NCBI GenBank assembly: GCA_045646385.1
Contig: JAZRKQ010000016.1
Span: forward strand, 96,336-120,335
DNA: 24,000 nt
Origin: Clostridia bacterium
GTDB taxonomy: Bacteria; Bacillota; Clostridia; UMGS1810
Reading direction: 5' to 3'
The notes below the pieces were generated by a model. That model had not been told where the DNA came from and did not search any database. It saw nothing but the letters and a program-made list of their open reading frames with translations. Below, piece by piece: positions 318 to 22,249 of this stretch; position 1 is the first letter of the stretch; every line of letters starts with the position of its first letter. Made by a program: the position numbers and the translations under genes.

Positions 318-1238
318 ATGGATATATTTTTAAATGTTTTAAAAGTTACATTAGAAGAAGGCTTTATGTATGCCATACTTGCTATGGGTGTATATATCAC
401 TTATTCAATACTTGATTTTCCTGATTTGTCTGTTGACGGAACAATGCCGCTGGGTGCGATTGCTACAGGTGTTCTTATAATGGCTGGTGTAAATCCTTGG
501 GTTTGCCTTCTTATTTCTTTTGTACTTGGTGCTCTTGCAGGTGTTATTACGGGTATATTGCATGTAAAATTTAAAATTCGCGATTTACTATGCGGAATAC
601 TCACATACACATCATTGCTTACGATTAATTTAATAATTGTGACGTCGGGAACAGGTGGTATGTCTATTGCATCATTTTTCAGAGATCCAACAATATTCAA
701 CACTTTTCCTGCCACGATAATACCGGAAAAAGTAGGCGGATATTCTTTAAGAATACTTGTCATGTCATTTGTTATTGTTTTGGTCGTAAAGATAATAATG
801 GATTTGTATTTAAAAACAAAATCAGGTATTTTACTTCGTGCTACTGGTGATAATTCGAGGTTTGTAACGATGCTTGCCGTTGATTCAGGTAAAATCAAAA
901 TTTTAGGTCTTGCTTTGGGAAATGGATTGGCAGCACTATCCGGTTCTGTTATTGCACAATCTAAAGGCTCTGCTGATCCTCAAATGGGAGTGGGAATGGT
1001 AGTTCTTGGCTTGGCATCGGTTATTATTGGACTGAGCATATTTAAAAAGTTTTCGTTAATTAAAACAACCACTATGGTTATTTTGGGCAGTATAGCATAC
1101 AAGGCTTGTTTATCTATTGCGCTTGAGTTGGGCTTACCCACCAATTATTTAAAACTTCTTATGGCTGTTATTTTTACTATAGCGATAGTTGCAAGCAGAA
1201 TATCAATAAAAAAGGGTGGTGCACATGTTAAGGCTTGA
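318..1238 (+). CDS. ABC transporter permease
   Basis: 306-aa, highly hydrophobic, multi-TM protein. ATG at 318 is preceded by AGAGG. It lies between the binding-protein and ATPase genes, and its 3' end overlaps the ATPase start. Confidence 0.85.
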   Translation: MDIFLNVLKVTLEEGFMYAILAMGVYITYSILDFPDLSVDGTMPLGAIATGVLIMAGVNPWVCLLISFVLGALAGVITGILHVKFKIRDLLCGILTYTSLLTINLIIVTSGTGGMSIASFFRDPTIFNTFPATIIPEKVGGYSLRILVMSFVIVLVVKIIMDLYLKTKSGILLRATGDNSRFVTMLAVDSGKIKILGLALGNGLAALSGSVIAQSKGSADPQMGVGMVVLGLASVIIGLSIFKKFSLIKTTTMVILGSIAYKACLSIALELGLPTNYLKLLMAVIFTIAIVASRISIKKGGAHVKA

Positions 1239-1998
1239 AAATATCACCAAAAAATTTAATCCGGATACAATAGATGAAAGCATTGTTTTTGATAATTTCA
1301 ATTTTATGGTTAATAAAGGCGAGTTTGTATCAGTTATAGGCTCTAACGGAAGCGGAAAAAGTACATTGCTCAACCTGATATGCGGAACACTTGCACAGGA
1401 TAGTGGCAATATCATATTCAATAATAAAAATATAAATAAACTTTCTGAATATAAACGTGCAAAATTTATCGGGCGAGTTTATCAAGAACCAAAAGCCGGA
1501 ACTTGCGGGAATCTGACTATTGCCGAAAACATAGCATTGGCAGATAATAAAAATCAGTTTTATGGGCTTTCCAAATGCCTGACAAAGAAACGGATTGATT
1601 ATTATAAAACTTTGCTTGAAAAATGCAATTTAGGGCTTGAAAATCGTATATCGACTAAGGTCGATGCACTAAGCGGTGGTCAAAGGCAAGCATTAGCCCT
1701 TGTTATTGCAAATATGTGTGATATAGATTTACTTATACTTGATGAGCATACTGCTGCGCTTGACCCGAAATCTTCCGATACAGTTATGCATTTAACAGAT
1801 AAACTTGTAAATGAAAAGGGGATAACAACCCTTATGGTAACTCACAATTTAAGATTTGCTGTTGAGTATGGTAATCGTCTTGTAATGATGCATGAAGGGG
1901 ATACTGTCTTAGATGTTTCGGGCGAAGACAAGGAAAATGTTGATGTTGACGATTTGCTTGGAAAGTTTTATGAAATCAGTATAGAAAAAGGAAATTAA
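1225..1998 (+). CDS. ABC transporter ATP-binding protein
   Basis: Walker A GSNGSGKST, ABC signature LSGGQRQ and Walker B LLILDEHT. ATG at 1225 is preferred over the ORF-track GTG at 1216 because AAGGGTGG sits just upstream. Confidence 0.9.
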   Translation: MLRLENITKKFNPDTIDESIVFDNFNFMVNKGEFVSVIGSNGSGKSTLLNLICGTLAQDSGNIIFNNKNINKLSEYKRAKFIGRVYQEPKAGTCGNLTIAENIALADNKNQFYGLSKCLTKKRIDYYKTLLEKCNLGLENRISTKVDALSGGQRQALALVIANMCDIDLLILDEHTAALDPKSSDTVMHLTDKLVNEKGITTLMVTHNLRFAVEYGNRLVMMHEGDTVLDVSGEDKENVDVDDLLGKFYEISIEKGN

Positions 1999-3653: not shown

Positions 3654-3670
3654 ATTTAACGTAGTCTTTT

Positions 3671-3754
3671 GGAGAGGTGTCCGAGTGGTTTAAGGAGCTA
3701 GTCTTGAAAACTAGTGATGCGAAAGCACCCAGAGTTCGAATCTCTGCCTCTCCG
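3671..3754 (+). tRNA. tRNA-Ser (anticodon UGA)
   Basis: Acceptor GGAGAGG/CCTCTCC with discriminator G. Anticodon stem CTAGT/ACTAG with loop CTTGAAA. Long variable arm. T arm CAGAG-TTCGAAT-CTCTG. No encoded CCA. Confidence 0.9.
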
Positions 3755-3804
3755 TTTTTTTATATCTAAATGACTGTTTCATCTCATCATGGCAGTCTGA
3801 GTAT

Positions 3805-3892
3805 GGAGAAGTACTCAAGTTGGTGAAGAGGTGCCCCTGCTAAGGGTATAGGTCGGGAAACCGGCGCGAGAGTTCAAATCTCTCCTTCTCCG
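3805..3892 (+). tRNA. tRNA-Ser (anticodon GCU)
   Basis: Acceptor GGAGAAG/CTTCTCC with discriminator G. Anticodon stem TGCCC/GGGTA with loop CTGCTAA. Long variable arm. T arm GAGAG-TTCAAAT-CTCTC. Confidence 0.9.
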
Positions 3893-3894
3893 TG

Positions 3895-3931
3895 AAAATA
3901 CAAGTGTCTATAGAGGCACTTGTATTTTTTG
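3895..3931 (+). terminator. Rho-independent terminator after the tRNA genes
   Basis: ATACAAGTGTCT (3898-3909) pairs with AGGCACTTGTAT (3914-3925) around loop ATAG, followed by a T6 run. Confidence 0.8.
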
Positions 3932-3971: not shown

Positions 3972-4000
3972 TTGACATATTAAAATTAATATGATATATT
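3972..4000 (+). promoter_or_regulatory. Sigma-A promoter driving the T-box leader
   Basis: TTGACA (3972-3977), a 17-nt spacer, then TATATT (3995-4000) with TG at 3992-3993. Confidence 0.7.
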
Positions 4001-4013
4001 TATGTAGAATAAA

Positions 4014-4280
4014 GGCTTTGACGGAGAGTACATATTCATTTGAACTTTAGAGAGAAGTGGCGGTTGGTGCGAGTCATAAGGGATGGAATATGTTTGTAGC
4101 TTCTGAGCCGGGAGGAAGAAAGCAATTTTGTTAGTAGAACCTTCCCGTGATTGCTGCGTTAATGCATATGGGTTGTTTGACCCTGAGAGTGGCGCATATT
4201 TTGCGCAATTTGAGTGGTACCGCGGGTGAATTACACTCGTCTCAAAGATTTTAACTATACTTTGAGGCGAGATTTTTTTT
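4014..4280 (+). promoter_or_regulatory. T-box riboswitch leader (tRNA-sensing transcription attenuator), probable GUA (Val) specifier
   Basis: Stem I: GA/K-turn motif, AGUA (4027-4030), AG bulge AGAGAGAA (4049-4056) and distal loop GGUUGGUGCGAG (4062-4073). Stem II spans 4110-4147 and contains AGUAGA. Stem III is GCGCA/UGCGC (4192-4206). The T-box motif AAUUUGAGUGGUACCGCG is at 4207-4224. A 12-bp terminator (4236-4247/4260-4271) plus U8 competes with an antiterminator. Confidence 0.85.
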
Positions 4281-4308
4281 GCCTCATGATAAAGGAGAAA
4301 TTTTTAAT

Positions 4309-6600
4309 ATGGAAAACTCAAGGGATATTAATCTCAAAATCAAGGAAATGGCTGAACGTATCCGTGAACTGCGTGAGATTGAGAACTATACCACGCAGGA
4401 AATGGCCGAAAAAACAGGTATTTCTGTTGAAGAGTACATAAAATGCGAAAATGGCGAATCAGACCTCAACTTTGCTTTTATTTATCGTTGTGCGGCTGCA
4501 TTAAGAGTAAACGTTACAGATATTATAGAAGGTTATAGCCCTAACCTTAAATCTTATACTGTTACACGTGCAGGTGCAGGGCAACAAATTGCCAAAGCAC
4601 ATGGTATGATTTATCATAACCTTGCTTATGCATTTAAGAATCGTATTGCTGAACCTCTTTTTGTTGTAAGCGCATATGATGAAGACGCGCAAAATAAAGA
4701 TATCGAACTTACAACACATTCAGGGCAGGAATGTGATATTGTTATTGAGGGACACCTTATGGTACAGATAGGCGAGCATAAGGAAGTGCTCGGCCCTGGC
4801 GACAGTATCTATTATAATAGCGACACTCCACACGGTATGATTGCTGTTAACGGAAAAGAATGTAAGTTTTATGCTATAGTTTTAAGAGCGGATGTAGATG
4901 GAGCAGATACACCTTCTGATGTTGTTTCTACTGAACAGATTATAGGTTCTATCCACAGAGATACAAAAGACAGAATCTACCATAACTTTATTGATGTGGT
5001 TGAAGATGATAAAGGCACACCGATTTCTATAGAATTTAAAAATACTGAAAAGTTCAACTTTGCATTTGACCTTGTTGACGAACTTTCAAGACGTGAGCCC
5101 GACAAACTTGCTATGCTTCATATCGGTAAAGACAAAACCGAAAGACGTTTTACTTTTACTGATATGAGAAAGGCTTCAAGTCAATGTGCTAATTATTTTG
5201 CTTCACTCGGAATTAAAAAGGGTGACAGAGTAATGCTTATTTTGAAACGCCATTATCAATTCTGGATAGCAATGCTCGGTTTAAATAAACTTGGTGCAAT
5301 TGCAATTCCTGCAGTTGACCAACTTCACGAACACGACCTTGAGTATAGATTTAATTCTGCGGGCGTAAGTGCTATTGTATGTACATCGGATGGAGAAGTT
5401 GCAAATTATGTTGATATTGCAGCAGAAAAATGTCCATCACTTATAAATAAAATGATTGTAGGAGGAAGTAAAGAGGGTTGGAGAAACTTTGACGAAGAGT
5501 ATAAGCGTTTTAGTTCGCACTTTGACCGTACTGAAGACTCTCCGTGTGGCGATGATACTATGCTTATGTATTTCACATCCGGTACATCAGGTTATCCAAA
5601 AATTGCTACGCACAATTATAAATATCCTTTAGGACATTTCCATACTGCTAAATATTGGCACAATGTTGATCCTGATGGTTTACATTTTACAATTTCAGAT
5701 ACCGGTTGGGCAAAGGCGATGTGGGGTAAACTTTATGGACAATGGCTTTGTGAGGCTGCAACATTTGTATATGACTTTGACCGTTTTGATGCATCTGAAA
5801 TATTACCAATGTTTGCAAAACACCATATTACAACTTTCTGTGCACCTCCAACAATGCTCCGTATGATGATTAAGCAAGATATTTCAAAATATGATTTTTC
5901 ATCTGTTCGTCATATGACAACGGCAGGCGAGGCTCTTAATCCGGAGGTTTATCGTCAGTTTGAAAAGGCAACTGGTCTTCAGATTAAAGAAGGTTTTGGA
6001 CAGACAGAGAGCACGATGATTATAGGTAATCTTGTTGGCAAACCTCATAAAATTGGTGCTATGGGTAAACCGGCACCTATATACAAGGTTGAACTTCATG
6101 ATTCTGATGGTAATCCTGTTAAAACAAGTGAGTCAGGTGAAATTGTTATCAATGTTAAAGACGGAGCACCTTGTGGTTTGTTTACCGGATATTATGGCGA
6201 TGAGGAAAAAACAAAAGAAGTATGGCACGATGGATATTACCATACCGGTGACGTTGCATGGTGCGATGAAGACGGATTCTATTGGTATGTAGGACGTATA
6301 GATGATGTTATTAAGTCTTCCGGATACCGCATTGGTCCTTTTGAAATTGAAAGTGTTATTATGGAATTACCATATGTACTTGAGTGCGGTGTTTCTGCCG
6401 TTCCTGATGAAGTAAGAGGTCAAATCGTTAAAGCTAGCATTGTTTTGGTAAACGGTACAGAGCCTACTGAGGAACTTAAAAAAGAGATACAGAATTATGT
6501 AAAAGATAAAACCGCGCCGTATAAATATCCAAGAATTGTTGAATTTAAAGACAGTTTACCAAAAACAGTAAGCGGAAAAATCCAAAGAAATAAACTTTAA
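4309..6600 (+). CDS. Fusion protein: XRE-family HTH, cupin domain and AMP-forming (ACSM/MACS-type) acyl-CoA synthetase
   Basis: ATG at 4309 follows AAGGAG. The ORF-track TTG at 4279 lies in the terminator U-tract and is rejected. In ORF-track numbering, the HTH covers about aa 22-80, the cupin about aa 115-203 (HSGQE...GPGDSIYYNSDTPHG) and the linker aa 204-232. Ligase motifs are FTSGTSGYPK, GFGQTES, YHTGD, GRIDDVIKSSGYRIGPFEIE and SGKIQR. Confidence 0.85.
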   Translation: MENSRDINLKIKEMAERIRELREIENYTTQEMAEKTGISVEEYIKCENGESDLNFAFIYRCAAALRVNVTDIIEGYSPNLKSYTVTRAGAGQQIAKAHGMIYHNLAYAFKNRIAEPLFVVSAYDEDAQNKDIELTTHSGQECDIVIEGHLMVQIGEHKEVLGPGDSIYYNSDTPHGMIAVNGKECKFYAIVLRADVDGADTPSDVVSTEQIIGSIHRDTKDRIYHNFIDVVEDDKGTPISIEFKNTEKFNFAFDLVDELSRREPDKLAMLHIGKDKTERRFTFTDMRKASSQCANYFASLGIKKGDRVMLILKRHYQFWIAMLGLNKLGAIAIPAVDQLHEHDLEYRFNSAGVSAIVCTSDGEVANYVDIAAEKCPSLINKMIVGGSKEGWRNFDEEYKRFSSHFDRTEDSPCGDDTMLMYFTSGTSGYPKIATHNYKYPLGHFHTAKYWHNVDPDGLHFTISDTGWAKAMWGKLYGQWLCEAATFVYDFDRFDASEILPMFAKHHITTFCAPPTMLRMMIKQDISKYDFSSVRHMTTAGEALNPEVYRQFEKATGLQIKEGFGQTESTMIIGNLVGKPHKIGAMGKPAPIYKVELHDSDGNPVKTSESGEIVINVKDGAPCGLFTGYYGDEEKTKEVWHDGYYHTGDVAWCDEDGFYWYVGRIDDVIKSSGYRIGPFEIESVIMELPYVLECGVSAVPDEVRGQIVKASIVLVNGTEPTEELKKEIQNYVKDKTAPYKYPRIVEFKDSLPKTVSGKIQRNKL

Positions 6601-6602
6601 TT

Positions 6603-6638
6603 AAAAATGACTCATTCAACTGAATGAGTCATTTTTTT
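6603..6638. terminator. Bidirectional rho-independent terminator
   Basis: ATGACTCATTC (6607-6617) pairs with GAATGAGTCAT (6622-6632) around loop AACT, with an A-run on the left and T7 on the right. It serves the convergent genes on both sides. Confidence 0.85.
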
Positions 6639-8118
6639 ATTGTATTGTTTTTTTGCTTTGGTAAACTGGTTCGCAAGTAACATTAATCCCAAGTCTGCGT
6701 AATACATTTTCATCTACTGAAGAAAGTATTACAGAGGAATGAACTTCGCAACCTCTCAATTTGCTTAACTGTTCCATAGCAAGTTCTGCATTTTCATCAG
6801 TTGGTGCACAAATTGAAAGAGCAATCAGCGCTTCGTCAGTATGAAGTCTTGGATTTCTGTTACCAAGATGATCGGTTTTTAAATGTTGGATTGGTTCTAT
6901 AATTACAGGTGAAATAAGGTGGATAGCGTCATCAAGTCCGGCAAGTTCTTTCAATGCATTAAGCAAAAGTGCCGCAGCAGCACCTAAGAGTTCAGAAGTT
7001 CTTCCGGTAATAATTTTCCCGTTTGGTAGTTCTAATGCTGCAGCAGGAGCGCCAGTAATAGCAGATTTTTGAAGAGCAGGACCTATAACGGCACGGTCGT
7101 TTGTTGTTACACCAGCTTTTTTCATAAGTAATTCAAGTTTCATAACAACATCATCGTCTGTTAAAATTCCTTTTCTTTGGTCACATAATGCAGTATAGTA
7201 TCTTCTTACAATTTCTTGTTTCGATGCGGTTTTGGTTATCTCATCATCAATAATGCAGTTTCCTGCCATATTTACCCCCATATCGGTAGGTGATTTGTAT
7301 GGACAAGCACCTAAAATGTCTTCAAGCATAGCCTTAACAACAGGGAAAATTTCTACATCTCTGTTATAATTTACTGTTGTCTCACCATATGCTTCGAGGT
7401 GAAAAGGATCAATCATGTTAACATCGTTTAAATCTGCAGTTGCAGCCTCGTACGCAAGGTTAACCGGATGAGTAAGCGGAAGATTCCAGATAGGGAATGT
7501 TTCAAACTTAGCATATCCTGACTGAATACCTTTCTTATGCTCATGATAAAGTTGAGAAAGGCATGTTGCCATTTTTCCGCTTCCGGGGCCGGGTGCAGTA
7601 ACAACAACTAATTCTTTTGTTGTTTCGATATATTCGTTTTTTCCATACCCATCATCGCTTACAATTTTAGGGATATCAGATGGATAACCATCAATAGAGT
7701 AGTGACGGTATACCTTAATGCCGAGTGCCTCAAGACGTTTCTGAAATGCGATTGCAGTGGCTTGTCCACTAAAGCGAGTCATAACCACACTGCCTACGTA
7801 TAAGCCAATAGAACGGAAGCAATCAATTAAGCGGATAACATCCAAATCGTAAGTAATTCCTAAATCACTGCGAAGTTTGTTTTTTTCTATATCAGCGGTG
7901 TTTATGGCTATAACGACCTCTACGCGGTCTTTAAGTTGAAGAAGCATTTTGAGTTTGCTGTCAGGCTCAAATCCGGGCAGAACTCTTGATGCATGGTAAT
8001 CATCAAAAAGTTTGCCGCCAAATTCCAAATATAATTTGCCGCCAAATTGTTCAATACGCTCTTTAATATGTTGAGATTGCATATGAAGATATTTTTCATT
8101 ATCAAATCCTATAGCCAC
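6637..8118 (-). CDS. DUF1846 / UPF0371 family protein (function unknown)
   Basis: 493 aa. Matches the family along its full length as I recall it: [77 protein letters not shown] start at 8118 with an AGAGGTG RBS. Confidence 0.9.
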
Positions 8119-10463: not shown

Positions 10464-10492
10464 TTGACAAAACGATATGTATATGATATCAT
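10464..10492 (+). promoter_or_regulatory. Sigma-A promoter (extended -10) upstream of the small ORF and the long operon
   Basis: TTGACA (10464-10469), a 17-nt spacer, then TATCAT (10487-10492) with TG at 10484-10485. Confidence 0.6.
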
Positions 10493-10522
10493 AAATGTAT
10501 ATTTTTGAAAGGGGATGTACGT

Positions 10523-10804
10523 ATGTCGAATTTTGTTAAACATTTTGCTAATATGTTTACCAAAGATGCGTCTGTAAGTGCGTGTTCCTCTTGTGGTGCA
10601 GTTAATACTGCTACCAATTTTAATTTTATTAAATTTGCAGACACTGTTTTTTCAGTGTCTGTTTTGTTATGTTCTTTAATTTCCATTATTGGTTTTGCTT
10701 TGCTTGGTCTAATTTATGTGATTATACTGGCAAACATTATAATTATTAACATTATATGTCTGAAAAAAATATTCTATAAAAAGCGAAACATTATTAAATT
10801 CTAA
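10523..10804 (+). CDS. Hypothetical small membrane protein (93 aa)
   Basis: ATG at 10523 follows GAAAGGGGA. The N-terminal half is soluble and carries a CSSCG motif. The C-terminal half is hydrophobic and very Ile-rich. No family was recognised. Confidence 0.45.
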   Translation: MSNFVKHFANMFTKDASVSACSSCGAVNTATNFNFIKFADTVFSVSVLLCSLISIIGFALLGLIYVIILANIIIINIICLKKIFYKKRNIIKF

Positions 10805-10833
10805 TTTTTCGATATAAACAATCCAAGTTTAAG

Positions 10834-10868
10834 ACGGTTTTGCTTTTTATAGGCGGAGCCGTTTTTTA
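10834..10868 (+). terminator. Rho-independent terminator/attenuator-like hairpin directly upstream of the operon
   Basis: ACGGTTTTGC (10834-10843) pairs with GCGGAGCCGT (10853-10862). The stem is 10 bp including 3 G-U pairs, the loop is 9 nt, and a T6 run follows. It ends 29 nt before the next start codon. Confidence 0.55.
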
Positions 10869-10896: not shown

Positions 10897-12312
10897 ATGA
10901 CAGAAATCAAAATTGCCGACATTACTTTAAGAGAAAAATCTTTTTGTGAGGTTGATGCTCTAAGTTTTAAAGAAAAAACAGAGATTGCCAAACAACTGGA
11001 TAATCTAAAAGTTGATATAATTGAAACAGCGCCAATCACAAGTGGCAAAAAAGATATTCTGTTCTTACACACAATTTCTTCAATTGTAAAAAACAGTATA
11101 ATTTCTTGCCCGACAGGTCTTTCTGAGGAATCTGTTTTAGAGGCTTATGATGCTATTAAAAATTCTGTTAAGTCAAGACTTAATATTATTGTTCCTGTTT
11201 CAACTGTGCAAATGGAATATATATGCCACAAAAAGCCTGATAAAGTTCTTGATATGATTGCAAATCTTACCAAATACGCAAGTTCGCTTTGTAAAGATGT
11301 TGAAGTGTCATTGGCAGACAGCACCAGAGCTGAAAGTGAATTTTTATATAAAGCGATTTCTGCTGCTATAGGAAATGGAGCAAAGGTCATTACCTTGTGT
11401 GATTCTGCCGGAATTATGATGCCGTCTGAATTTGAACAGTACATAAATACTATTTATGATAATGTTCCTGAACTTAAAGAAGTGGCTCTTTCAGTTGAGT
11501 GCTCAAACGAAATGAACATGGCTACCGCATGTGCTATTGCCTGCATTAATGCCGGTGCTACACAAATAAAGGTTGCCACAGGCTCAAATTCATGCCCATC
11601 ACTTAAATCTACTGCTAATGTATTCAGAATTAAATCTGATGTTTTAAAAATTTCTACTTTAATGAATATGACGGTTCTGGATAAAGCGGTTGCCCGTATT
11701 TCTTCTATTGCTGATGGCAATATTGGTAATGCAACTGTGTATAATACTGAAGAACATAAAAACTATTTTGAAGATACAAAATTCAGTGCTGATGACGATA
11801 TTAAAACTATTGAAAAAGCGCTTGTAACTATGGGATATGAATTACCTGCAGAAGAACTTAAAAATGTATATGACGAGTTTTCAAAAATCGCTGTAAAAAA
11901 ATCTGTTGGTATTAAAGAACTTGACGCAATTGTTGCAAGTACTGCTATGCAAGTTGCACCTACATATAAAGTTAAAAGTTATGTTATTAACAGCGGTAAC
12001 ATTTTAACGCCTACTGCTAATATAGAACTTACTAAAAGTGGTGATGTACTTCACGGTTTTTCTATAGGTGATGGCCCGATTGATGCTGCGTTTATGGCTA
12101 TAGAGCAGATTACAGGTCACCATTACGAACTTGATGATTTCCAGATACAATCTGTAACTCGCGGACGAGAGGCAATGGCAGAGAGTATTGTAAAACTCAG
12201 AAATGATGGTAGACTTTATTCCGGAAAAGGCACGTCTACAGATATTGTAGGCGCAAGCATTAATGCCTATATCAACGCATTGAATAAAATTTGCTTTGAG
12301 GAGGAGATATAA
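10897..12312 (+). CDS. LeuA/2-isopropylmalate-synthase-like protein with degenerate catalytic motifs and an intact LeuA_dimer regulatory domain
   Basis: The HMGL-like TIM-barrel N-terminal half aligns with LeuA (EKTEIAKQLDNLKVDIIE). The N-terminal DTTLRDGEQ motif reads DITLREKSF, and the HxH metal motif reads ECSNE (nt 11497-11511). The C-terminal GDGPIDAAFMAIE...DIVGASINAYINALNK is well conserved. Confidence 0.8.
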   Translation: MTEIKIADITLREKSFCEVDALSFKEKTEIAKQLDNLKVDIIETAPITSGKKDILFLHTISSIVKNSIISCPTGLSEESVLEAYDAIKNSVKSRLNIIVPVSTVQMEYICHKKPDKVLDMIANLTKYASSLCKDVEVSLADSTRAESEFLYKAISAAIGNGAKVITLCDSAGIMMPSEFEQYINTIYDNVPELKEVALSVECSNEMNMATACAIACINAGATQIKVATGSNSCPSLKSTANVFRIKSDVLKISTLMNMTVLDKAVARISSIADGNIGNATVYNTEEHKNYFEDTKFSADDDIKTIEKALVTMGYELPAEELKNVYDEFSKIAVKKSVGIKELDAIVASTAMQVAPTYKVKSYVINSGNILTPTANIELTKSGDVLHGFSIGDGPIDAAFMAIEQITGHHYELDDFQIQSVTRGREAMAESIVKLRNDGRLYSGKGTSTDIVGASINAYINALNKICFEEEI

Positions 12313-14768
12313 TGAATTTATCTTTTTCTACCAATAAATGGACAGATTTTAAAATTAGTGATTTCATTAAAATTGCTGCTGAATACAAATTTAACGGTAT
12401 AGAAATTCATGATGTTAATGAAATCAACGAGGAAAGTCTTTCCGATACTTATCACTCGCTTATTGAACATGGTATAAAAATACCGTGTATAGATATGGTG
12501 AACGATGTTTCAATTGATTCTTCAGAACTTTATAATGAATTTGAAAGGTTAAAAGAAGTAGTTGCTAAACTGCGAATCCCTTATATAAGATTGAAATCAA
12601 GCGGAGATGCAGCGGAATTTATAAAAAAAGTTTTGCCTTATGCAAAAGAAAATGGAATTACTTTGCTTGTTGAAACAGTGGGGGAATATGCAGATACTTC
12701 AAAACTCCGTACTTTGCTTGAAAGTTTTGCAGACGATAACCTTGCTGCATTGTGGGATTTTCATTATCCTTACCGTGTTAACGGCGAAGCGCCTGAAGAC
12801 ACTATCAGAAATCTTGGGGCATATGTTAAGCATATCCATATAAAAGACTCTGAAAGTTTAGCAGAGCATAGCCTGATAGGCGAGGGCAGTCTTCCTGTTG
12901 ATGAATTTATTAATGCATTAAGAAGTATAAATTTTAACGGATTTGTTTCGATAGAATGGAATCCTGACTGGGTATCAGAGGTTGATGATATAGACATTAT
13001 TTTCCCGCACTTTGTAAGTTTTATGTCAAGATATAAAGATCCTTCAAGAGCGAAAAAAGTTCTTTATGACAATAAAACAAAAACAGGCAAGTTTGTATGG
13101 AAAAAAGATGCATTGGTTGAAAAGACATTTTCACAAGTCCTTGATACTATGGCGGAGCAGTTTCCTGACCAGTACGCAATAAAATACACAACGCTTGATT
13201 ATACAAGAACATATTCGCAATTTCGTGATGATGTTGATAACTTTGCTAAAAGTTTGCTTGCTTTGGGTGTAAAAAAAGGAAGTCACGTTGCTGTTTGGGC
13301 AACAAATGTTCCTCAATGGTATATTGCATTCTGGGCAACAACAAAAATTGGTGCTGTTTTAGTTACAGTAAATACCGCGTATAAAATCCATGAAGCAGAG
13401 TATCTACTCAGACAGTCAGACACACACACACTGATTTTGATTGAAGGATACAGAGATTCAAATTACTCACAGATTATTGCAGAACTCTGTCCTGAACTTG
13501 AAACTAAAGAAGCAGATGCGCCATTACATGCTAAGAGATTACCTTTCCTTAGAAATGTAATTACCGTCGGATATAAGCAAAAGGGTTGCCTTACATGGGA
13601 AGCTGCACTTTCCAAAGGTGAAAAAGTACATATTGATGAAGTTAAGCGTGCTGCCGCCGCTGTTGATGTTCATGATGTATGTAATATGCAGTATACATCA
13701 GGTACTACAGGTTTTCCAAAGGGTGTAATGCTTACACATTATAATATTGTAAATGATGGTAAATGTATTGGCGATAGAATGGACCTTTCAACTGCCGACC
13801 GAATGATGATTCAAGTTCCTATGTTACATTGCTTCGGAATGGTGTTGGCGATGACGGCTTCTATGACGCATGGCGCTACAATTTTCCCGTTGCCATACTT
13901 TACTCCAAAGCCTGCGTTAGCTTGTATAAATCAGGAACATATTACAGCGTTTCACGGTGTTCCTACAATGTTTATTGCAATGCTTGAACATCCTGATTTT
14001 GAAAAAACCGATTTCAGTCATATGAGAACTGGTATTATGGCTGGCTCTCCTTGTCCTGAGCCTGTTATGAATCAGGTTATAGAGCAGATGAATATGCGTG
14101 AAATTACAATTGTGTATGGTCAGACAGAGGCTTCACCCGGTTGTACAATGAGTTCTACTGATGATTCTGTTGAAGTTCGTGTTTCTACTGTAGGCAGAGC
14201 GCTTCCTGAAATCGAATGCCGAATTGTAGATCCTGAAACAAACGAGGAACTTCCTGATAATACTATCGGCGAATTTGTTGCCAGAGGATATAATATTATG
14301 AAAGGGTATTACAAAATGCCCGAAGCAACGGCTGCTGCTATTGATAGTGACGGTTGGCTACATACAGGTGATTTGGCCCTCAAAACTCCCGAAGGAAACT
14401 ATCGAATTACAGGCCGTTTAAAAGATATGATTATTCGCGGAGGAGAAAATATTTATCCTAAAGAAATTGAAGAATTTATTTACACGCATCCCAAAGTTAG
14501 CGATGTTCAGGTAATTGGTGTTCCTGATGAACAGTATGGCGAGGAAATTATGGCTTGTATTATTCCTAAAGAGGGAGAGACCATTACCATTGATGAAATG
14601 AAAGAATATATTCTTTCACATATGGCTAAGCACAAAGTGCCTAAATACATTGATTTTGTTGATGCTTTCCCGACAAATGCTGCGGGAAAAATCCTCAAAT
14701 ATAAAATGCGTGAAGATGCTGTCGAAAGACTTAAAATTAAAAAAGTTGACGGCATTGTAGCAGAATAA
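12312..14768 (+). CDS. Fusion protein: xylose-isomerase-like TIM barrel (sugar-phosphate isomerase/epimerase family) and AMP-forming acyl-CoA ligase (FadD/ACSF2-like)
   Basis: The ATG overlaps the upstream stop (TAATG). Aa 1-240 resemble the AP_endonuc_2/XylA-like TIM barrel (LLVETVG, HIHIKD, VSIEWN). Aa ~266-818 carry the ligase motifs YTSGTTGFPKG, YGQTEASP, WLHTGD, GRLKDMIIRGGENIYPKEIE and AGKILK. Confidence 0.85.
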   Translation: MNLSFSTNKWTDFKISDFIKIAAEYKFNGIEIHDVNEINEESLSDTYHSLIEHGIKIPCIDMVNDVSIDSSELYNEFERLKEVVAKLRIPYIRLKSSGDAAEFIKKVLPYAKENGITLLVETVGEYADTSKLRTLLESFADDNLAALWDFHYPYRVNGEAPEDTIRNLGAYVKHIHIKDSESLAEHSLIGEGSLPVDEFINALRSINFNGFVSIEWNPDWVSEVDDIDIIFPHFVSFMSRYKDPSRAKKVLYDNKTKTGKFVWKKDALVEKTFSQVLDTMAEQFPDQYAIKYTTLDYTRTYSQFRDDVDNFAKSLLALGVKKGSHVAVWATNVPQWYIAFWATTKIGAVLVTVNTAYKIHEAEYLLRQSDTHTLILIEGYRDSNYSQIIAELCPELETKEADAPLHAKRLPFLRNVITVGYKQKGCLTWEAALSKGEKVHIDEVKRAAAAVDVHDVCNMQYTSGTTGFPKGVMLTHYNIVNDGKCIGDRMDLSTADRMMIQVPMLHCFGMVLAMTASMTHGATIFPLPYFTPKPALACINQEHITAFHGVPTMFIAMLEHPDFEKTDFSHMRTGIMAGSPCPEPVMNQVIEQMNMREITIVYGQTEASPGCTMSSTDDSVEVRVSTVGRALPEIECRIVDPETNEELPDNTIGEFVARGYNIMKGYYKMPEATAAAIDSDGWLHTGDLALKTPEGNYRITGRLKDMIIRGGENIYPKEIEEFIYTHPKVSDVQVIGVPDEQYGEEIMACIIPKEGETITIDEMKEYILSHMAKHKVPKYIDFVDAFPTNAAGKILKYKMREDAVERLKIKKVDGIVAE

Positions 14769-14780
14769 GGAGATATAAAA

Positions 14781-15839
14781 ATGGATATTAAAATTACAAA
14801 AACAACTGCATCAAAAGCAATTCCTACAGAAAATTTGGGATTTGGCAAAAGTTTTACTGACCATATGTTTATTGCTGATTACTCAAGAGATAAAGGTTGG
14901 TATAATGCCAGAATCGTTCCGTTTGCAAATTTGAGTATGCATCCTGCGGCAACCGTTTTTCATTACGGTGCTGAAATTTTCGAAGGATTAAAGGCATACA
15001 GAAGAGCAGATGGTAAAGTTCAACTTTTCAGACCTATTGAAAATGTAAGAAGAATGAACAATTCTGCTGAACGTTTAAGACTTCCTCAAATGCCGGAAGA
15101 AGATATGCTTCAGGCAATTATGGAACTTGTTAAAGTTGAAGAAGCATGGGTGCCTCATAACGAGGGTGAATCTCTTTACATTCGTCCATTCCTTTTTGGT
15201 AATGACGAACATTTAGGCGTTCATTCAATCGTGAACGCAACATTTGTAATCATTTGCTCACCAAGCGGAAGTTATTATGCTGAAGGTATAAATCCCGTTA
15301 AAATTATGATTGAAGAAGACGATGTAAGGGCTGTTCGTGGCGGTACTGGATTTGCTAAATGCGGTGGTAACTATGCTGCGGCTAACCGTGCCGGTGAAAA
15401 AGCAGAGCAGTTAGGCTATACACAGGTTCTTTGGCTCGATGGTGTTGAAAGAAAGTACATAGAAGAAGTAGGCGCTATGAATGTAATGTTTAAAATTGAT
15501 GGTGAAATTGTAACTCCCGCACTTACTGGTTCAATTCTTCCGGGTATAACGAGAAAATCATGTATCGAAGTATTAAAGAACGAGGGATATACAGTTTCTG
15601 AAAGACTTCTCTCTATTGATGAACTGACAGATGCAATGGAAAATGGCAAGTTAGAAGAGGCTTGGGGTTGCGGAACCGCTGCTGTTGTATCACCTATTGG
15701 ACAGTTGTTCTATAAAGGTAAAACTTATACTATCAACAATAACGAAATTGGTACTGTTACTCAGAATCTTTATAATAAACTTACCGGTATTCAGTGGGGT
15801 AAAGTTGAGGATACATTCGGATGGACAGTAGAGATTTAA
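14781..15839 (+). CDS. ilvE: Branched-chain amino acid aminotransferase
   Basis: 352 aa. Class IV BCAT hallmarks: FGKSFTDHMF, HYGAEIFEGLKAYR, FRP.ENV.RMN.SA.RL.LP and the PLP lysine context GTGFAKCGGNYAA. An AAGGAG RBS is present. Confidence 0.9.
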   Translation: MDIKITKTTASKAIPTENLGFGKSFTDHMFIADYSRDKGWYNARIVPFANLSMHPAATVFHYGAEIFEGLKAYRRADGKVQLFRPIENVRRMNNSAERLRLPQMPEEDMLQAIMELVKVEEAWVPHNEGESLYIRPFLFGNDEHLGVHSIVNATFVIICSPSGSYYAEGINPVKIMIEEDDVRAVRGGTGFAKCGGNYAAANRAGEKAEQLGYTQVLWLDGVERKYIEEVGAMNVMFKIDGEIVTPALTGSILPGITRKSCIEVLKNEGYTVSERLLSIDELTDAMENGKLEEAWGCGTAAVVSPIGQLFYKGKTYTINNNEIGTVTQNLYNKLTGIQWGKVEDTFGWTVEI

Positions 15840-16501
15840 AACGTGTTACCATTTTCGCAGGGCATTACGGAAGCGGAAAAACAAATATTGCCGTAAATTA
15901 TGCTTTAAGTATTTCTGCCTCTGGAAAACCTGTTGCTATTGCAGATTTGGATATTGTAAATCCGTATTTCAGGACGAAAGATTCTGAAAAAATATTATCA
16001 GCAAATAATATACGTCTTATATCTTCACCATATGCTAATACAAATGTTGATACCCCTGCATTACCGGCAGAGGCATATTCTGTAATACATGATAAAAATG
16101 TATATTCGGTAATAGATGTTGGTGGTGATGACAGAGGTGCATTGGCTCTTGGCAGATATATGCCTGCAATACGCGAACAAAACAATTACGAAATGATATT
16201 TGTTATAAACAAATACAGATATCTTACATCTACCCCCGAAGAAACTGTTCAAATAATGCGTGAGATTGAAATTGCTGCAGGTGCAAAATTTACATCTATT
16301 GTTAACAATTCAAATCTTGGAGAAGAAACTACTGTCGATGACGTGATTTCTTCTGTAAAATACGCTGAAAAAGTTGCTGAAATAACAGGGTTGAAAATTA
16401 AAATGACCACTGTTAAATCTGATTTAATTTCTAAATTGAATAACAAGATAGACAATCTTTTCCCGATTGAACTTTATGTAAGGCAATCGTGGCTAAAATA
16501 A
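15821..16501 (+). CDS. SIMIBI-like P-loop NTPase of unknown role
   Basis: Deviant Walker A GHYGSGKT, followed by ADLDIVNPYF and a Walker-B-like VIDVGGDD. The ATG lies 9 nt after GAGGA and overlaps the ilvE 3' end by 19 nt. Confidence 0.65.
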   Translation: MDSRDLKRVTIFAGHYGSGKTNIAVNYALSISASGKPVAIADLDIVNPYFRTKDSEKILSANNIRLISSPYANTNVDTPALPAEAYSVIHDKNVYSVIDVGGDDRGALALGRYMPAIREQNNYEMIFVINKYRYLTSTPEETVQIMREIEIAAGAKFTSIVNNSNLGEETTVDDVISSVKYAEKVAEITGLKIKMTTVKSDLISKLNNKIDNLFPIELYVRQSWLK

Positions 16502-16514
16502 GGAGGAAAAATAA

Positions 16515-16718
16515 ATGGCTAAAGTTACTTTTGACGAAAGCATTTGCAAAGGCTGCGGACTTTGCGTAGGTGCTTGTCCCAAAAAAATTGTTGCTTTGAA
16601 AGATGAACTGAATGCCAAAGGATATCATCCTGCCGGCGTTACCGATATGGAAAGTTGCATTGGTTGTGCGTTCTGCGCTACAATGTGTCCCGATTGTGTA
16701 ATTACAGTTGAAAAATAA
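16515..16718 (+). CDS. 2-oxoacid:ferredoxin oxidoreductase delta subunit (2x[4Fe-4S] ferredoxin)
   Basis: 67 aa with two CxxCxxCxxxCP motifs (CKGCGLCVGACP, CIGCAFCATMCP). AAGGAGG RBS. It lies immediately upstream of the alpha/beta/gamma subunits. Confidence 0.85.
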   Translation: MAKVTFDESICKGCGLCVGACPKKIVALKDELNAKGYHPAGVTDMESCIGCAFCATMCPDCVITVEK

Positions 16719-16731
16719 GGAGGAGAGAATT

Positions 16732-17802
16732 TTGAGCGAAAAAGTATTGATGAAAGGCAATGAAGCAATGGCAGAAGCCGCTATCATGGCCGGATGTAAA
16801 CATTATTTCGGATACCCCATTACTCCTCAGACAGAGGTTGCTGCATACATGGCAAAAAGACTTCCTAAAGTAGATGGTGGTGTATTCTTACAGGCAGAGA
16901 GCGAAATTGCTGCAATTAATATGGTAATTGGTGTTGCCGCTACAGGAAAAAGAGTTATGACCTCTTCTTCAAGTCCAGGTATTTCTTTAAAGAGTGAAGG
17001 TATTTCTTACCTTGCTGGTTGCGACTTACCTGCACTTATTGTAAACGTACAGCGTGGTGGTCCCGGTCTTGGCGGTATTCAGCCTTCACAGTCTGATTAT
17101 TTTCAGGCTACCAAGGGTGGGGGACACGGTGATTTTCATTTAATCGTTGTTGCACCTTCTTCTGTTCAGGAAATGGTTGATTTAACATCTAAATGTTTTG
17201 ATTTGGCAGATAAATACAGAATGCCTGCAATGATTCTTGCAGACGGCACTATGGGTCAGATGATGGAACCTGTTTCTTTAGAAGCAGCAGATGTTAAATC
17301 CGTTGATAAACCTTGGGCACTTACAGGTACTAAATGTGAACGTGAGCCAAATATTGTTAACTCACTTTTCTTAAAGCCTGATGAATTGGAGCAGTTTAAC
17401 ATTGAAAGATTCAAACGCTACAAAGAGATTGAAGCAAACGAAGTTATGTATGAAGAATATATGATGGATGATGCTGAAATTTGTATTGTTGCTTTTGGTG
17501 TTGCAGCAAGAGTATCTCAGAATGCTATTGATGAAGCACGCAAAAAAGGTATTAAAGTTGGTATGATAAGACCTATTACATTGTGGCCTTTCCCGAAAGA
17601 TGTTCTTAATAAGGCGGCAGATAAAGTAAAAGCATTTATTTCTGTTGAACTTAATATGGGACAGATGCTTGAAGATATTGAACTTGCTACACGCTGCAAA
17701 AAACCTGTACTTCTTTGCAGCAGAACAGGCGGTATGATTCACACAACTGAAAACATTCTTGATTCTATAGAAGAAGCACAGAAAATCGGAGGTGATAAAT
17801 AA
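16732..17802 (+). CDS. 2-oxoacid:ferredoxin oxidoreductase alpha subunit
   Basis: The N-terminus KGNEAMAEAAIMAGCKHYFGYPITPQTE is typical of Kor/Vor/Por alpha subunits. TTG at 16732, 6 nt after AAGGAGGAG, is preferred over the ORF-track start at 16708. ATG at 16750 is an alternative. Confidence 0.85.
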   Translation: MSEKVLMKGNEAMAEAAIMAGCKHYFGYPITPQTEVAAYMAKRLPKVDGGVFLQAESEIAAINMVIGVAATGKRVMTSSSSPGISLKSEGISYLAGCDLPALIVNVQRGGPGLGGIQPSQSDYFQATKGGGHGDFHLIVVAPSSVQEMVDLTSKCFDLADKYRMPAMILADGTMGQMMEPVSLEAADVKSVDKPWALTGTKCEREPNIVNSLFLKPDELEQFNIERFKRYKEIEANEVMYEEYMMDDAEICIVAFGVAARVSQNAIDEARKKGIKVGMIRPITLWPFPKDVLNKAADKVKAFISVELNMGQMLEDIELATRCKKPVLLCSRTGGMIHTTENILDSIEEAQKIGGDK

Positions 17803-18554
17803 TGGTAGTATTTGAAAAACCTAAAGCACTTACAGAAAACACTTTGCATTATTGTCCCGGTTGTACACATGGTATTATTCATCGTTTAGTTGCAGAAGCA
17901 ATTGATGAATTAGGTATTAGAGGAAGAACAATCGGTGTTGCATCTGTTGGATGCTCAGTATTTACATATAATTACTTTAATGTTGATATGGTTCAGGCAG
18001 CACACGGCAGAGCGCCTGCTGTTGCTACCGGTGTTAAACGCTCAGATAGTAATAACATTGTATTTACATATCAGGGCGATGGCGATTTGGCTGCTATTGG
18101 CACTGCTGAAACAGTTCACTCTGCTGCAAGAGGCGAAAATATTACCGTTATTTTTGTAAATAATGCAATTTACGGTATGACTGGCGGTCAGATGGCTCCG
18201 ACAACTCTGCCCGGACAGGTAACACAGACTTCGCCGTACGGAAGAGATGTCGACAAAGTTGGTTACCCCATTAAAGTTTGTGAAATGCTTTCTAAGGTTG
18301 ACGGTGCTACTTATCTTGAAAGAGTTGCTGTCAATAATGTTAAAAATATTAAAAAAGCAAAAGAAGCAATTAAAAAGGCTTTCCAGAATCAGATTGAAGG
18401 CAAAGGATTTTCTTTAGTAGAAGTACTTTCTACTTGTCCTACAAACTGGGGTAAAACTCCTGAAGATTCTCTTAAATGGCTTGAAAGCGAAATGATGCCT
18501 TACTATCCATTGGGAGTTTACAAGGACAAATACGCAGACGGGGAGGCAAAATAA
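17802..18554 (+). CDS. 2-oxoacid:ferredoxin oxidoreductase beta subunit (TPP-binding)
   Basis: YCPGCTHG cysteine motif and GDGD...NN TPP-binding region. The start overlaps the alpha-subunit stop (TAATG). Confidence 0.9.
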   Translation: MVVFEKPKALTENTLHYCPGCTHGIIHRLVAEAIDELGIRGRTIGVASVGCSVFTYNYFNVDMVQAAHGRAPAVATGVKRSDSNNIVFTYQGDGDLAAIGTAETVHSAARGENITVIFVNNAIYGMTGGQMAPTTLPGQVTQTSPYGRDVDKVGYPIKVCEMLSKVDGATYLERVAVNNVKNIKKAKEAIKKAFQNQIEGKGFSLVEVLSTCPTNWGKTPEDSLKWLESEMMPYYPLGVYKDKYADGEAK

Positions 18555-19084
18555 TGAGTAAACAGATGTTAATTGCCGGATTTGGCGGACAGGGAGTTCT
18601 TTTCGCAGGAAAATTTATTGCTTATGCAGGACTCATTGAAGAAAAAGAAGTTAGTTGGTTGCCATCTTACGGTCCGGAAATGCGTGGAGGTACCGCAAAC
18701 TGCAGCGTAATTTTGAGCGATACCAAAGTAGGTTCCCCAATCGTTGATAAACCTGATATTTTAGTTGCTTTAAACGCACCGTCACTTGATAAATATGAAA
18801 ATGATGTTGTTTCAGGAGGTCATATTTTTGTTGATAGTTCTCTCATTGACAGAAAGGTTAACCGTACTGATGTAAATGTGCACTATATTCCTGCATCTAA
18901 AATGGCGTCGGACGAAAATTTAAGTGGCCTTGCAAATATGATTATGATGGGACATATGATTAAACATAGCGATGTAATTGAATATGATAGCATTGAAAAA
19001 TCTATGGCCAAAGTAGTTTCTGCAAAAAAACAAAATCTTTTTGATGCTAATAAAAAGGCTGTGGAACTGGGATATAACTATTAA
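18554..19084 (+). CDS. 2-oxoacid:ferredoxin oxidoreductase gamma subunit
   Basis: N-terminal [10 protein letters not shown] motif and SYGPEMRGG, typical of gamma subunits. The start overlaps the beta-subunit stop (TAATG). Confidence 0.9.
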
Positions 19085-19098
19085 GGAGGGGACGCCTT

Positions 19099-19650
19099 GT
19101 GAATAACCAGATTAAAGATATCGGTATGCGTCTGGCTTTTTTGCGCGAAGATATGGAACTTACTACTGCACAAATGGCAGAGAAATTAGATGTTGATGAG
19201 GCAACATATATTTCTTATGAAAAAGGCGAGATGGATTTTTCATTTAGTTTTATTTATAATGCTGCTGATCATCTTGGTGTTGATGTTCTGGATTTAATCA
19301 GCGGTGATGCTCCTACACTTTCTATGTGTACAATGGTTGAAAAAGGGAATGGATATTCAGTTAAAAGAGAGCATGAGTATGATTATAAGCATCTTGCTTA
19401 CACCTTCAGAAATAAAAAGGCTGAACCATTTCTTGTAACAATAACCCCTGACGAAAAACCGCCTGTTATGAAATGTCATGAAGGACAGGAATTTAACTAC
19501 GTGCTTTCCGGAAAGATGAAATTCTTTATAGGAGATATTTCATATGAACTTTCCAAAGGTGATAGCGTTTATTTTGATTCCGGAATACCTCACGCGGAAG
19601 TTGCCCTTGGTGATAAACAGGCTCAGTTTATCGCCGTAGTAATTAAATAA
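19099..19650 (+). CDS. XRE-family HTH transcriptional regulator with C-terminal cupin domain
   Basis: 183 aa. It aligns over its whole length with aa ~20-203 of the fusion at 4309-6600 (MAEK...FIY.A...L.V.V.D.I; KHLAY.F.N..AEPF; GDSVYFDSGIPH). GTG start lies 7 nt after AAGGAGGGG. Confidence 0.85.
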   Translation: MNNQIKDIGMRLAFLREDMELTTAQMAEKLDVDEATYISYEKGEMDFSFSFIYNAADHLGVDVLDLISGDAPTLSMCTMVEKGNGYSVKREHEYDYKHLAYTFRNKKAEPFLVTITPDEKPPVMKCHEGQEFNYVLSGKMKFFIGDISYELSKGDSVYFDSGIPHAEVALGDKQAQFIAVVIK

Positions 19651-19665
19651 CTTTCGGAGGCTTGA

Positions 19666-21382: not shown

Positions 21383-22249
21383 ATGACAGATGTAAAAATA
21401 ACTGATGTGCGTGTTCATCCCGGTGATAGCGGTTTCTTAGTTGATGATGGCGAAACATCAATACTATATGATTCAGGTTTTGCTTTTACCGGAAGCGGAA
21501 TGGTTAATAAAATCAAAGAACAACTTGGAAACAGAAAATTAGATTACATATTCCTTACACATTCTCATTACGATCATGTGCTTGGCGCTCTTTATGCAAT
21601 GAGGCAATGGCCTGATGCAAAAGTAATTGCAGGTGAATATGCTGCAAAGATTTTTTGCAAACCATCTGCAAAATCTGTTATGCGTAAACTTGACCAAAAG
21701 TTTGCAACTACCTGTGGAGCAGAACCGTATGAAGATATAATTGACGAACTCAGAGTTGACATTACCGTCAACGATGGTGATATTATAAATGCCGGAAAAA
21801 TGACATATAAAGTTGTTGATTTACCGGGACACACTAAATGTTCTGTTGGTTTTTATCTTGTTGGGAAAAAACTTTTACTAAGTACCGAAACTCTCGGTAT
21901 ATATGCCGGAAACGAAATTATATTGCCATCATTTTTAGTGGGTTATGAGATGACACTTAACTCTATTAAAAAAGTGGAAAATATGGATGTTGAGAATATT
22001 TTGGTGCCGCATTACGGTTTGCTAGACAGAGAACACACAAAAGTGTTTTTGAAAAAAGCAAAAGAAGTTGCACATATAACTGCAGAAGATTTTTCTGCAA
22101 GGATAAAAAAAGGGCAGACAGATGAGGAATTAATAGAATATTTCAAATCATTATATTATCACGATTACATTAGGGTTATTTACCCTATAGATGCTATTGA
22201 ACTTAATACAAGTTGTATGATTAACTTAATAAAACGAGAGTGTTTATAA
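21383..22249 (+). CDS. MBL-fold metallo-hydrolase
   Basis: 288 aa with the canonical HSHYDH (HxHxDH) zinc motif, followed by GHT and a later His. GAAGGTG RBS. It is the last gene before the terminator. Confidence 0.85.
   Translation: MTDVKITDVRVHPGDSGFLVDDGETSILYDSGFAFTGSGMVNKIKEQLGNRKLDYIFLTHSHYDHVLGALYAMRQWPDAKVIAGEYAAKIFCKPSAKSVMRKLDQKFATTCGAEPYEDIIDELRVDITVNDGDIINAGKMTYKVVDLPGHTKCSVGFYLVGKKLLLSTETLGIYAGNEIILPSFLVGYEMTLNSIKKVENMDVENILVPHYGLLDREHTKVFLKKAKEVAHITAEDFSARIKKGQTDEELIEYFKSLYYHDYIRVIYPIDAIELNTSCMINLIKRECL

Follow-up and report, generated by a model that had tools for sequence, protein, structure and literature searches.

The 24,000-nucleotide stretch of a Clostridia bacterium genome analysed here (contig JAZRKQ010000016.1, positions 96,336 to 120,335; hereafter the window) carries, at positions 4309-6600 of its forward strand, a gene that joins an XRE-type helix-turn-helix (HTH) domain, a cupin domain, a linker and an AMP-forming short branched-chain acyl-coenzyme A (acyl-CoA) ligase in a single polypeptide of 763 amino acids. 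Related versions of both halves are encoded at 19099-21363 of the same window as two adjacent, separate genes. From comparisons of the fused and split forms across many genomes, we conclude with high confidence that the HTH-cupin module and the ligase are a real and ancient partner unit; the module is probably not a DNA-binding regulator in the usual way. As far as our literature searches show, neither the fusion nor the conserved pairing of its two halves has been described. These searches, which covered HTH-cupin-ligase fusions, T-box control of such ligases and trigger-enzyme ligases, found no describing paper, in line with the first-pass annotation of the window, which had not recognised the architecture as a characterised one.

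The fusion gene and its split counterpart

The reading frame of the fusion gene is uninterrupted from a TTG at 4279 or an ATG at 4309 to position 6600, the 763 amino acids being counted from the ATG. Pfam matches are found for HTH_19/HTH_3 (residues 16-77), Cupin_2 (132-190), AMP-binding (260-629) and AMP-binding_C (679-757). The XRE-type HTH domain occupies residues 10-77 (4336-4539); it is acidic, and its exposed recognition-helix positions differ among orthologs. It is followed by a cupin beta-barrel with a presumed ligand or metal pocket (residues 114-192, 4648-4884), in which H137, G139, Q140, E141, G164, D165, P174 and H175 are invariant across the family, by a linker (residues 194-219, 4888-4965) and by the ligase module (residues 220-763, 4966-6597), which resembles the ligases MacsMa and MbcS. 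The AlphaFold model of the full fusion has a predicted local distance difference test score (pLDDT) of 68.6 and a predicted template modelling score of 0.60, with pLDDT values of 81-88 for the first HTH helices and a disordered linker (below 50 for residues 195-218); the N-terminal module modelled alone reaches a pLDDT of 50.8. A terminator at 6603-6636 makes the fusion gene monocistronic in this genome.

Residues 7-193 of the fusion align with the entire 183-residue HTH-cupin protein encoded at 19099-19650 on the forward strand (Pfam HTH_3/HTH_19 and Cupin_2; 37% identity, E = 2e-38). Residues 220-763 align with residues 2-556 of its partner, the 565-residue ligase encoded by the next gene at 19666-21363 (forward strand; 49% identity). 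Nothing in the split pair corresponds to the linker, and the junction of the fusion maps onto the intergenic gap between the two genes. The Rosetta-stone relation proposed in the first-pass annotation is thus borne out, since both halves are homologous to separate, adjacent genes and both states are stably inherited, and so is its statement that the first ~200 residues match the stand-alone HTH-cupin protein. Two of its details come out slightly differently here. The ligase part does align after a linker, which measures 26 residues and not about 29; the junction does correspond to the intergenic gap, which is 15 nt only if the ligase starts at the TTG at 19666, and 21 nt if it starts at the ATG at 19672. 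The ATG is probably the true start, judging by its better spacing behind the GGAGG at 19657-19661.

The fusion is widespread and stably inherited

A protein search retrieved at least 120 clusters of the fusion at 83-93% identity. All of the clusters listed have 760-765 amino acids and the same four domains, and their database names, where given, are 'AMP-binding protein' or 'cupin domain-containing protein'. A genome scan with one genome per species gave 588 stretches related to the fusion. The best 80 loci of these were examined; all come from metagenome-assembled genomes of uncultured Clostridia, Oscillospiraceae or Acutalibacteraceae from ruminant, other animal and human guts. These 80 species-level loci contain 124 fused open reading frames (ORFs) of full length, the only exceptions being truncations at contig ends and one apparent frameshift. 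The HTH-cupin modules of the orthologs are 70-94% identical to that of the window and their pocket residues are invariant. Two types of fusion can be told apart, paralog B, the valine-controlled type to which the window protein belongs, and paralog A (~755 amino acids), which is also abundant.

This recurrence leaves hardly any room for an error in sequencing or assembly, or for a neutral read-through of recent date whose N-terminal part is decaying. Such a reading could point to the homolog in locus L055 (3345-5633), where a fusion B ortholog is split into a 109-residue N-terminal piece and a 641-residue remainder by an apparent frameshift or sequencing error, but this is the only such case among the 124. 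Against it, the same 760-765-residue frame is present in more than 120 independent clusters and in 80 genomes from several assembly projects, and the N-terminal module has kept both its sequence and its invariant pocket residues. We therefore regard an artefact as extremely improbable; the stop or frameshift between cupin and ligase that the first-pass annotation had raised as a possible sign of misassembly is not seen in the uninterrupted frame of the window gene.

The HTH-cupin module and the ligase are ancient partners

Stand-alone HTH-cupin proteins of the 183-residue type form more than 120 clusters, all of 182-188 residues. A search with the N-terminal module found 2795 relatives, among which those above ~48% identity are fusions or fragments of fusions, and stand-alone proteins of ~185 residues appear at 48% and below. 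To these we added a metagenome search with an alignment of the distant stand-alone relatives, using a pattern that lies in the cupin only and is blind to the neighbouring gene. It yielded 574 stretches confirmed as relatives, of which the best 80 loci were kept. Of the distant stand-alone HTH-cupin genes, 60 have 700 nt or more of sequence behind them, and in all 60 a ligase of the same family follows 3' on the same strand, with a median gap of ~14 nt. In the split operons of other genomes the order of the gamma subunit of 2-ketoisovalerate:ferredoxin oxidoreductase (VOR), HTH-cupin and ligase, in mid-operon position, is conserved as well.

The trees of the two modules are congruent as well. 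Those built by neighbour joining show the same major clades, and pairwise module distances correlate with r = 0.66 among 28 split pairs, a value that none of 2000 Mantel permutations reaches. The pairing, the short gap and the congruent trees support the earlier proposal that regulator and ligase act as a unit, and the lack of co-evolution that would have spoken against it is not what we see. In each module tree the fused proteins group together as one clade, without exception, so that the fusion arose once, before the A/B duplication, in an Oscillospirales lineage; several independent fusion events were rejected on the same ground. One metagenome contig (L124, 357-5076) carries two stand-alone HTH-cupin and ligase pairs in tandem. 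The A and B fusions are arranged in the same manner, so that the pair as a whole appears to have been duplicated repeatedly.

A probable branched-chain acid ligase in a reductive-carboxylation pathway

The closest solved relative of the ligase module is 3ETC, with an end-to-end alignment (E = 5.8e-187). This structure belongs to MacsMa, an enzyme of Methanosarcina acetivorans that prefers 2-methylbutyrate and for which W259, G459-Y460, R490, Y525, Y527 and the A10 lysine have been reported as important (PMC10455477). In the 3ETC alignment these pocket and CoA-site residues are kept in the fusion as W472, G672-Y673, R703, Y738, Y740 and K757, and the core motifs TSGTSGYPK, GFGQTE, YHTGD and SGK are intact, in invariant columns. 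MbcS of Staphylococcus aureus, whose model is the best NCBIfam match of the ligase module, activates 2-methylbutyrate and isobutyrate (PMC10026030). The score stays below the equivalog cutoff of that model, and the ligase is a relative of MacsMa and MbcS and not an MbcS ortholog. The likeness to the two enzymes runs from end to end and includes the key residues, but neither of them has been described with an HTH-cupin domain, and the words 'cupin' and 'XRE' are absent from the paper on MbcS evolution. The setting differs too: fatty-acid synthesis and a response to CodY in the case of MbcS, while the fusion ligase is found together with VOR and a branched-chain amino acid aminotransferase (BCAT) under T-box control.

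In about 50 of the 80 loci the gene order is fusion A, fusion B, CbiA-like gene, VOR, BCAT, LeuA-like gene and a second fusion of a TIM barrel with an AMP-binding ligase. The window has the genes of this cluster divided over two loci, with fusion B alone in the first and the rest at 10897-21363. There, on the forward strand, BCAT is encoded at 14781-15839 (NCBIfam, 478.5 bits against a cutoff of 307) and the VOR subunits at 16515-19084 (delta, 16515-16718; alpha, 16708-17802; beta, 17802-18554; gamma, 18554-19084), the alpha subunit matching NCBIfam VorB with 544.6 bits against a cutoff of 399. AMP-forming ligases run from the acid to the acyl-CoA. Because of this direction and of the presence of VOR and BCAT, we assign to the cluster, with high confidence, a route from branched short-chain acid to acyl-CoA, keto acid and amino acid by reductive carboxylation, of the kind known from anaerobes of the rumen and gut. 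Synthesis of isoleucine from 2-methylbutyrate by reductive carboxylation is documented for a rumen organism (PMC2812497). A catabolic role of the VOR/BCAT cluster in amino-acid fermentation was considered and set aside, given that the ligase is AMP-forming and that induction is by uncharged tRNA.

T-box leaders assign a branched-chain amino acid to each fusion

The leader of the fusion gene has a sigma-70-type promoter at 3972-4000 (TTGACA, 17 nt, TG-n-TATATT; 11 of 12 matches, with the TG extension), and the same layout of -35 and extended -10 elements precedes every orthologous leader. The promoter of the window gene is followed on the forward strand by a T-box at 4009-4247, matched by Rfam RF00230 at 100.3 bits where the gathering score is 93, which confirms the T-box proposed for this gene by the first-pass annotation. 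The match is full-length (model positions 1-219) and includes the specifier GUA (Val) at 4096-4098, a purine, G4099, after the specifier, and the tRNA-acceptor-binding UGGU at 4215-4218. An intrinsic terminator at 4236-4281, formed by the inverted repeat CTCGTCTCAAAG / CTTTGAGGCGAG and a T run, competes with the antiterminator.

A T-box motif lies upstream of 122 of the 124 fused genes, and in tandem loci each fusion paralog has its own promoter and T-box. Rfam structural alignments place the specifiers in one shared register, the codon of paralog A being AUC (Ile), that of paralog B, including the window gene, GUA (Val), and that of the LeuA-like gene and the TIM-barrel fusion CUC (Leu). By a strict pattern GTA is found in 60 of 80 orthologous leaders, and it is also present in all three leaders inspected among the 20 unmatched. 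Other registers for the window leader (UGU for Cys, UUG or CUG for Leu) were rejected, as only one register yields sense codons and a base-helix in all three leader classes. That three branched-chain codons share one register within one cluster supports both the register and the pathway. Because its specifier reads GUA, the window fusion is assigned to valine, and its most likely substrate would be isobutyrate.

The window leader is like those of other T-box amino-acid operons of Firmicutes in its specifier loop, UGGN bulge, terminator and a codon that matches the pathway product; unlike them, it controls a salvage-type acid-CoA ligase, and separate Ile, Val and Leu T-boxes occur in one cluster. 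A T-box motif also precedes the HTH-cupin gene in 4 of 72 distant stand-alone pairs (L149/L150 and L165 among the loci concerned), from which it follows that the HTH-cupin module comes under T-box control beyond the clade of fusions too. Two tRNA-Ser genes (3670-3929), one with anticodon UGA and one with GCU, lie immediately 5' of the T-box promoter of the window and end in a terminator of their own (3894-3929).

Sequence signs that the HTH domain may no longer read an operator

Among 40 + 57 promoters of fused genes, 5 leaders of split operons and 70 distant upstream regions, no conserved operator-like palindrome came to light, a computational result that leaves room for lineage-specific sites. 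A search for shared half-sites in the 70 distant upstream regions and the 40 + 57 promoters found only A/T tracts beside the -35 element to exceed shuffled sequences. In fact, the fused-gene promoters conserve only the -35, the extended -10 and an A/T tract, even with modules 70-94% identical to that of the window. Two candidate operators in the window were rejected, the palindrome ATATTAA-AA-TTAATAT in the spacer of the fusion promoter (3978-3993) and TATGATATCATA in the promoter of the second locus (10482-10493), both being absent from orthologous loci.

The reading surface of the HTH domain points the same way. Throughout the family, fused and stand-alone, the recognition helix follows V-[S/D]-x-E-E-Y-x-x-x-E-x-G and leads into an acidic loop. 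The window HTH carries the motif ISVEEYIKCENGESD and a net charge of about -5, within a family range of -5 to -9, whereas the canonical relatives DdrO and SinR have ...ISVPYLSDLERGRTNPS... at the recognition helix, with S, T, K or R where the module family is acidic. Helices 2 and 3 are the most variable segments within each orthologous group (1.1-1.7 bits of entropy, with 1.2-1.7 bits for helix 3). Entropy rises to 2-3.3 bits, and charges are swapped, at the exposed positions 40, 41, 44, 45, 48 and 50, as against 0.3-0.6 bits in helices 4-5 and the cupin, or 0.3-0.9 bits if helix 1 is included. The residues invariant at the family level belong to the HTH core (R17, R22, Y43, E47 and G49) and the cupin pocket, and not to the reading surface. 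By its column entropies among orthologs, the module thus lacks the conserved reading head of the XRE-cupin transcription factors. Transcription, moreover, is already handled by T-boxes in the fused genes, or by an Ile-rich leader ORF and terminator in the split operons. The first-pass annotation had pictured a BirA-like trigger enzyme; with no conserved operator, an acidic and variable reading face, and T-boxes or a leader ORF in charge of transcription, this idea did not find support.

Proposed role of the module and alternatives

The explanation we favour, to which we would give a little less than an even chance as a whole, is that the window gene encodes an isobutyrate-type CoA ligase under a valine T-box, fused to an ancestral XRE/cupin partner that senses a metabolite at the protein level. 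The valine-specific T-box would switch the fusion gene on when tRNA-Val is uncharged, and the 763-residue protein would make a short branched-chain acyl-CoA, most likely from isobutyrate, which would be reductively carboxylated by the VOR of the second locus and then transaminated by BCAT. The XRE-HTH/cupin module is the ancestral obligate partner of this ligase family, encoded in most bacteria by the immediately upstream gene and fused once in an Oscillospirales lineage. Its cupin may act as a small-molecule sensor on the ligase protein, for example through feedback or gating by the end product, the keto acid or the acyl-CoA, and its HTH would no longer read a specific operator but serve as a structural or interaction element. 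A more specific form of this proposal, which we put forward tentatively and hold to be possible rather than probable, is that a module derived from a transcription factor is now an obligate allosteric subunit, and in Oscillospirales a covalent domain, that gates the first ATP-consuming step toward Val or Ile, with RNA switches controlling transcription. The XRE-type HTH at the N-terminus of RodZ binds MreB and not DNA, and offers a precedent for an XRE fold as a protein-interaction surface, albeit with no sequence relationship to the module and in a different cellular process.

Several observations weigh against this proposal. The entropy comparison has no positive control on proven XRE-cupin repressors; the HTH of the proven DNA binder DdrO is also slightly negative by alignment count (net charge about -2), for which reason net HTH charge was downgraded as a stand-alone argument; and acidic residues can read DNA or contact bases in some regulators. 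The substrate preference of the ligase is deduced from T-box codons and homology together with the VOR and BCAT context, and the MbcS model scores 439.5 bits for the fused and 421.2 bits for the split ligase, below its equivalog cutoff of 850. The AlphaFold models of the full fusion and of the N-terminal module are too weak to reveal an interface between module and ligase. Where XRE-cupin proteins have been characterised, they act locally and repress the genes next to them (PMC7901475), and adjacency is exactly what the present genes show. Finally, the ligase part of one fused homolog, P0153, is degenerate, as might be expected of a protein that only regulates. In this protein of 758 residues, TSGTSGYPK has become QSYSYGMAKP, YHTGD has become FHTGT and SGKIQR has become NGVVIR, and it may be an HTH-cupin-pseudo-ligase that acts only as a regulator or sensor.

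The last two points are also those on which a true trigger enzyme, or one-component regulator, could be built. Here the module would be a dimeric, operator-binding XRE-cupin repressor whose DNA binding is tied to the cupin ligand or to the catalytic state, as that of BirA is to biotinyl-AMP. It has the domain architecture of the XRE-cupin repressors, which inhibit neighbouring metabolic genes; in distant relatives the HTH-cupin gene is the first of a two-gene ligase operon, a common layout for autoregulated repressors; the HTH fold residues R17, R22, Y43, E47 and G49 are invariant; and P0153 suggests that in one lineage or more the protein regulates and does not catalyse. These features have to be set against the absence of a conserved palindrome before the fused genes, the split operons and 70 distinct distant pairs, an acidic recognition helix and loop where canonical relatives have S, T, K or R, exposed reading positions that vary freely among orthologs, charge swaps included, and the mid-operon position of the HTH-cupin gene behind VOR-gamma in the split operons. 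We consider a trigger enzyme unlikely, and equally so the input of substrate availability that it would add over the T-box. Less probable again is a role as an accessory structural or catalytic subunit; the cupin might, for instance, bring about dimerisation, attach the ligase to VOR to allow channelling, or catalyse a metal-dependent reaction of the acyl substrate or of acyl-AMP. In favour of such a role, H137, E141 and H175, three of the four metal ligands canonical for cupins, are kept and invariant, the split copy weakly matches the EutQ-like Cupin_3, and the tight operon coupling is typical of subunits. However, VOR is not nearby in most distant pairs, the closest solved structure of the module, 1Y9Q, is a regulator-type protein, the HTH has no obvious catalytic role, and the H / E / H pattern also occurs in the sensor cupin of the regulator PuuR.

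Relation to known systems

The module is like the XRE-cupin transcription factors (ErfA, PsdR, PauR and PuuR; fold 1Y9Q, which aligns over residues 12-190 of the fusion) in its two-domain layout of HTH_3 and Cupin_2, its length of ~185 residues and its metabolic-enzyme neighbour. It differs from them in that it has no detectable operator and that its reading face is acidic and unconstrained; in addition, its gene is always co-directional with and immediately upstream of one ligase family, is often in mid-operon position, and is fused in one clade. The fusion also resembles the trigger enzymes BirA, NadR and PutA, in which one polypeptide combines an HTH-type domain with an enzyme that forms adenylates or is otherwise metabolic. 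In those proteins the DNA-binding head and the operator are conserved, whereas the fusion shows neither a conserved reading head nor a conserved operator.

Fibre degraders of the rumen and gut need isobutyrate, 2-methylbutyrate and isovalerate, and the genes and control logic involved are poorly defined. The locus provides a parts list for a branched-acid route, consisting of ligases under Ile and Val T-boxes, VOR and BCAT, in which T-box codons predict the acid handled by each ligase paralog, namely 2-methylbutyrate for paralog A and isobutyrate for paralog B. The HTH-cupin/ligase pair is very widespread, as the 574 confirmed metagenome stretches and the 588 fusion-related genome stretches indicate, and databases have no other names for it than 'AMP-binding protein' and 'helix-turn-helix transcriptional regulator'. 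A working repressor would make the fusion a new trigger enzyme. If the module is instead a protein-level sensor, many automatic 'transcriptional regulator' labels in the subfamily would be misleading, and adenylate-forming enzymes would have a new mode of regulation; as an allosteric subunit, it would stand for a class of regulatory enzyme subunits that is widespread among anaerobes and has so far gone unrecognised.

The second locus and neighbouring genes

The second locus has a leader of its own at 10464-10868 (forward strand), without a T-box, that consists of a promoter, a small Ile-rich ORF (10524-10804) and a hairpin followed by a T run (~10832-10868). Neither a T-box nor any other known RNA was found in this locus at E <= 1, nor in the split-type loci L081, L083 and L085. 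The layout of promoter, small ORF and terminator recurs in L081, L083, L085 and L086; in L081 the leader of the split-type operon is at 1149-1626, and in split-type leaders the terminator hairpin lies just 5' of the first biosynthetic gene. The small ORF of the window contains isoleucine runs (...VIILANIIIINIICL...), and the leader in L085 (~5300-5632) has a version of 35 residues (MMNMSSFFSGIIIIISALIVIK...). In sequence the split-operon leader looks like attenuation by an Ile leader peptide; alternatively, a small membrane protein may be encoded there, followed by a terminator. Leader-peptide attenuation is unusual in Clostridia.

The leader is followed on the same strand by a gene for a LeuA-like synthase (10897-12312), with HMGL-like and LeuA_dimer domains and scores below the isopropylmalate synthase cutoffs, and by the gene for the second fusion enzyme (12312-14768), an 818-residue protein in which domain matches identify a xylose-isomerase-like TIM barrel (AP_endonuc_2) and an AMP-binding ligase. 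This fusion is always paired with the LeuA-like gene, and in related genomes the pair is under a Leu (CUC) T-box (L040, 16680-16912; L073; L025). Behind BCAT, and overlapping its end, is a gene for a CbiA/MinD-like P-loop protein of 226 residues (15821-16501, forward strand). It is a conserved operon member with no NCBIfam match and stands directly before VOR delta in every fused-type and split-type operon seen; its product may take part in the maturation of VOR or act as an accessory protein to it.

Downstream of the split ligase, 21383-22249 encodes a hydrolase of the metallo-beta-lactamase fold with weak similarity to thioester hydrolases of the glyoxalase II type. Other split-type loci have a LytTR or AraC gene in its place, and the hydrolase is thus not conserved in the operon. 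The reverse strand at 6637-8118, convergent to the fusion gene, encodes a DUF1846 protein (PRK13663, 841 bits) that is highly conserved, and the left edge of the window (318-1998) carries genes for the permease and ATPase of a branched-chain amino acid ABC transporter.

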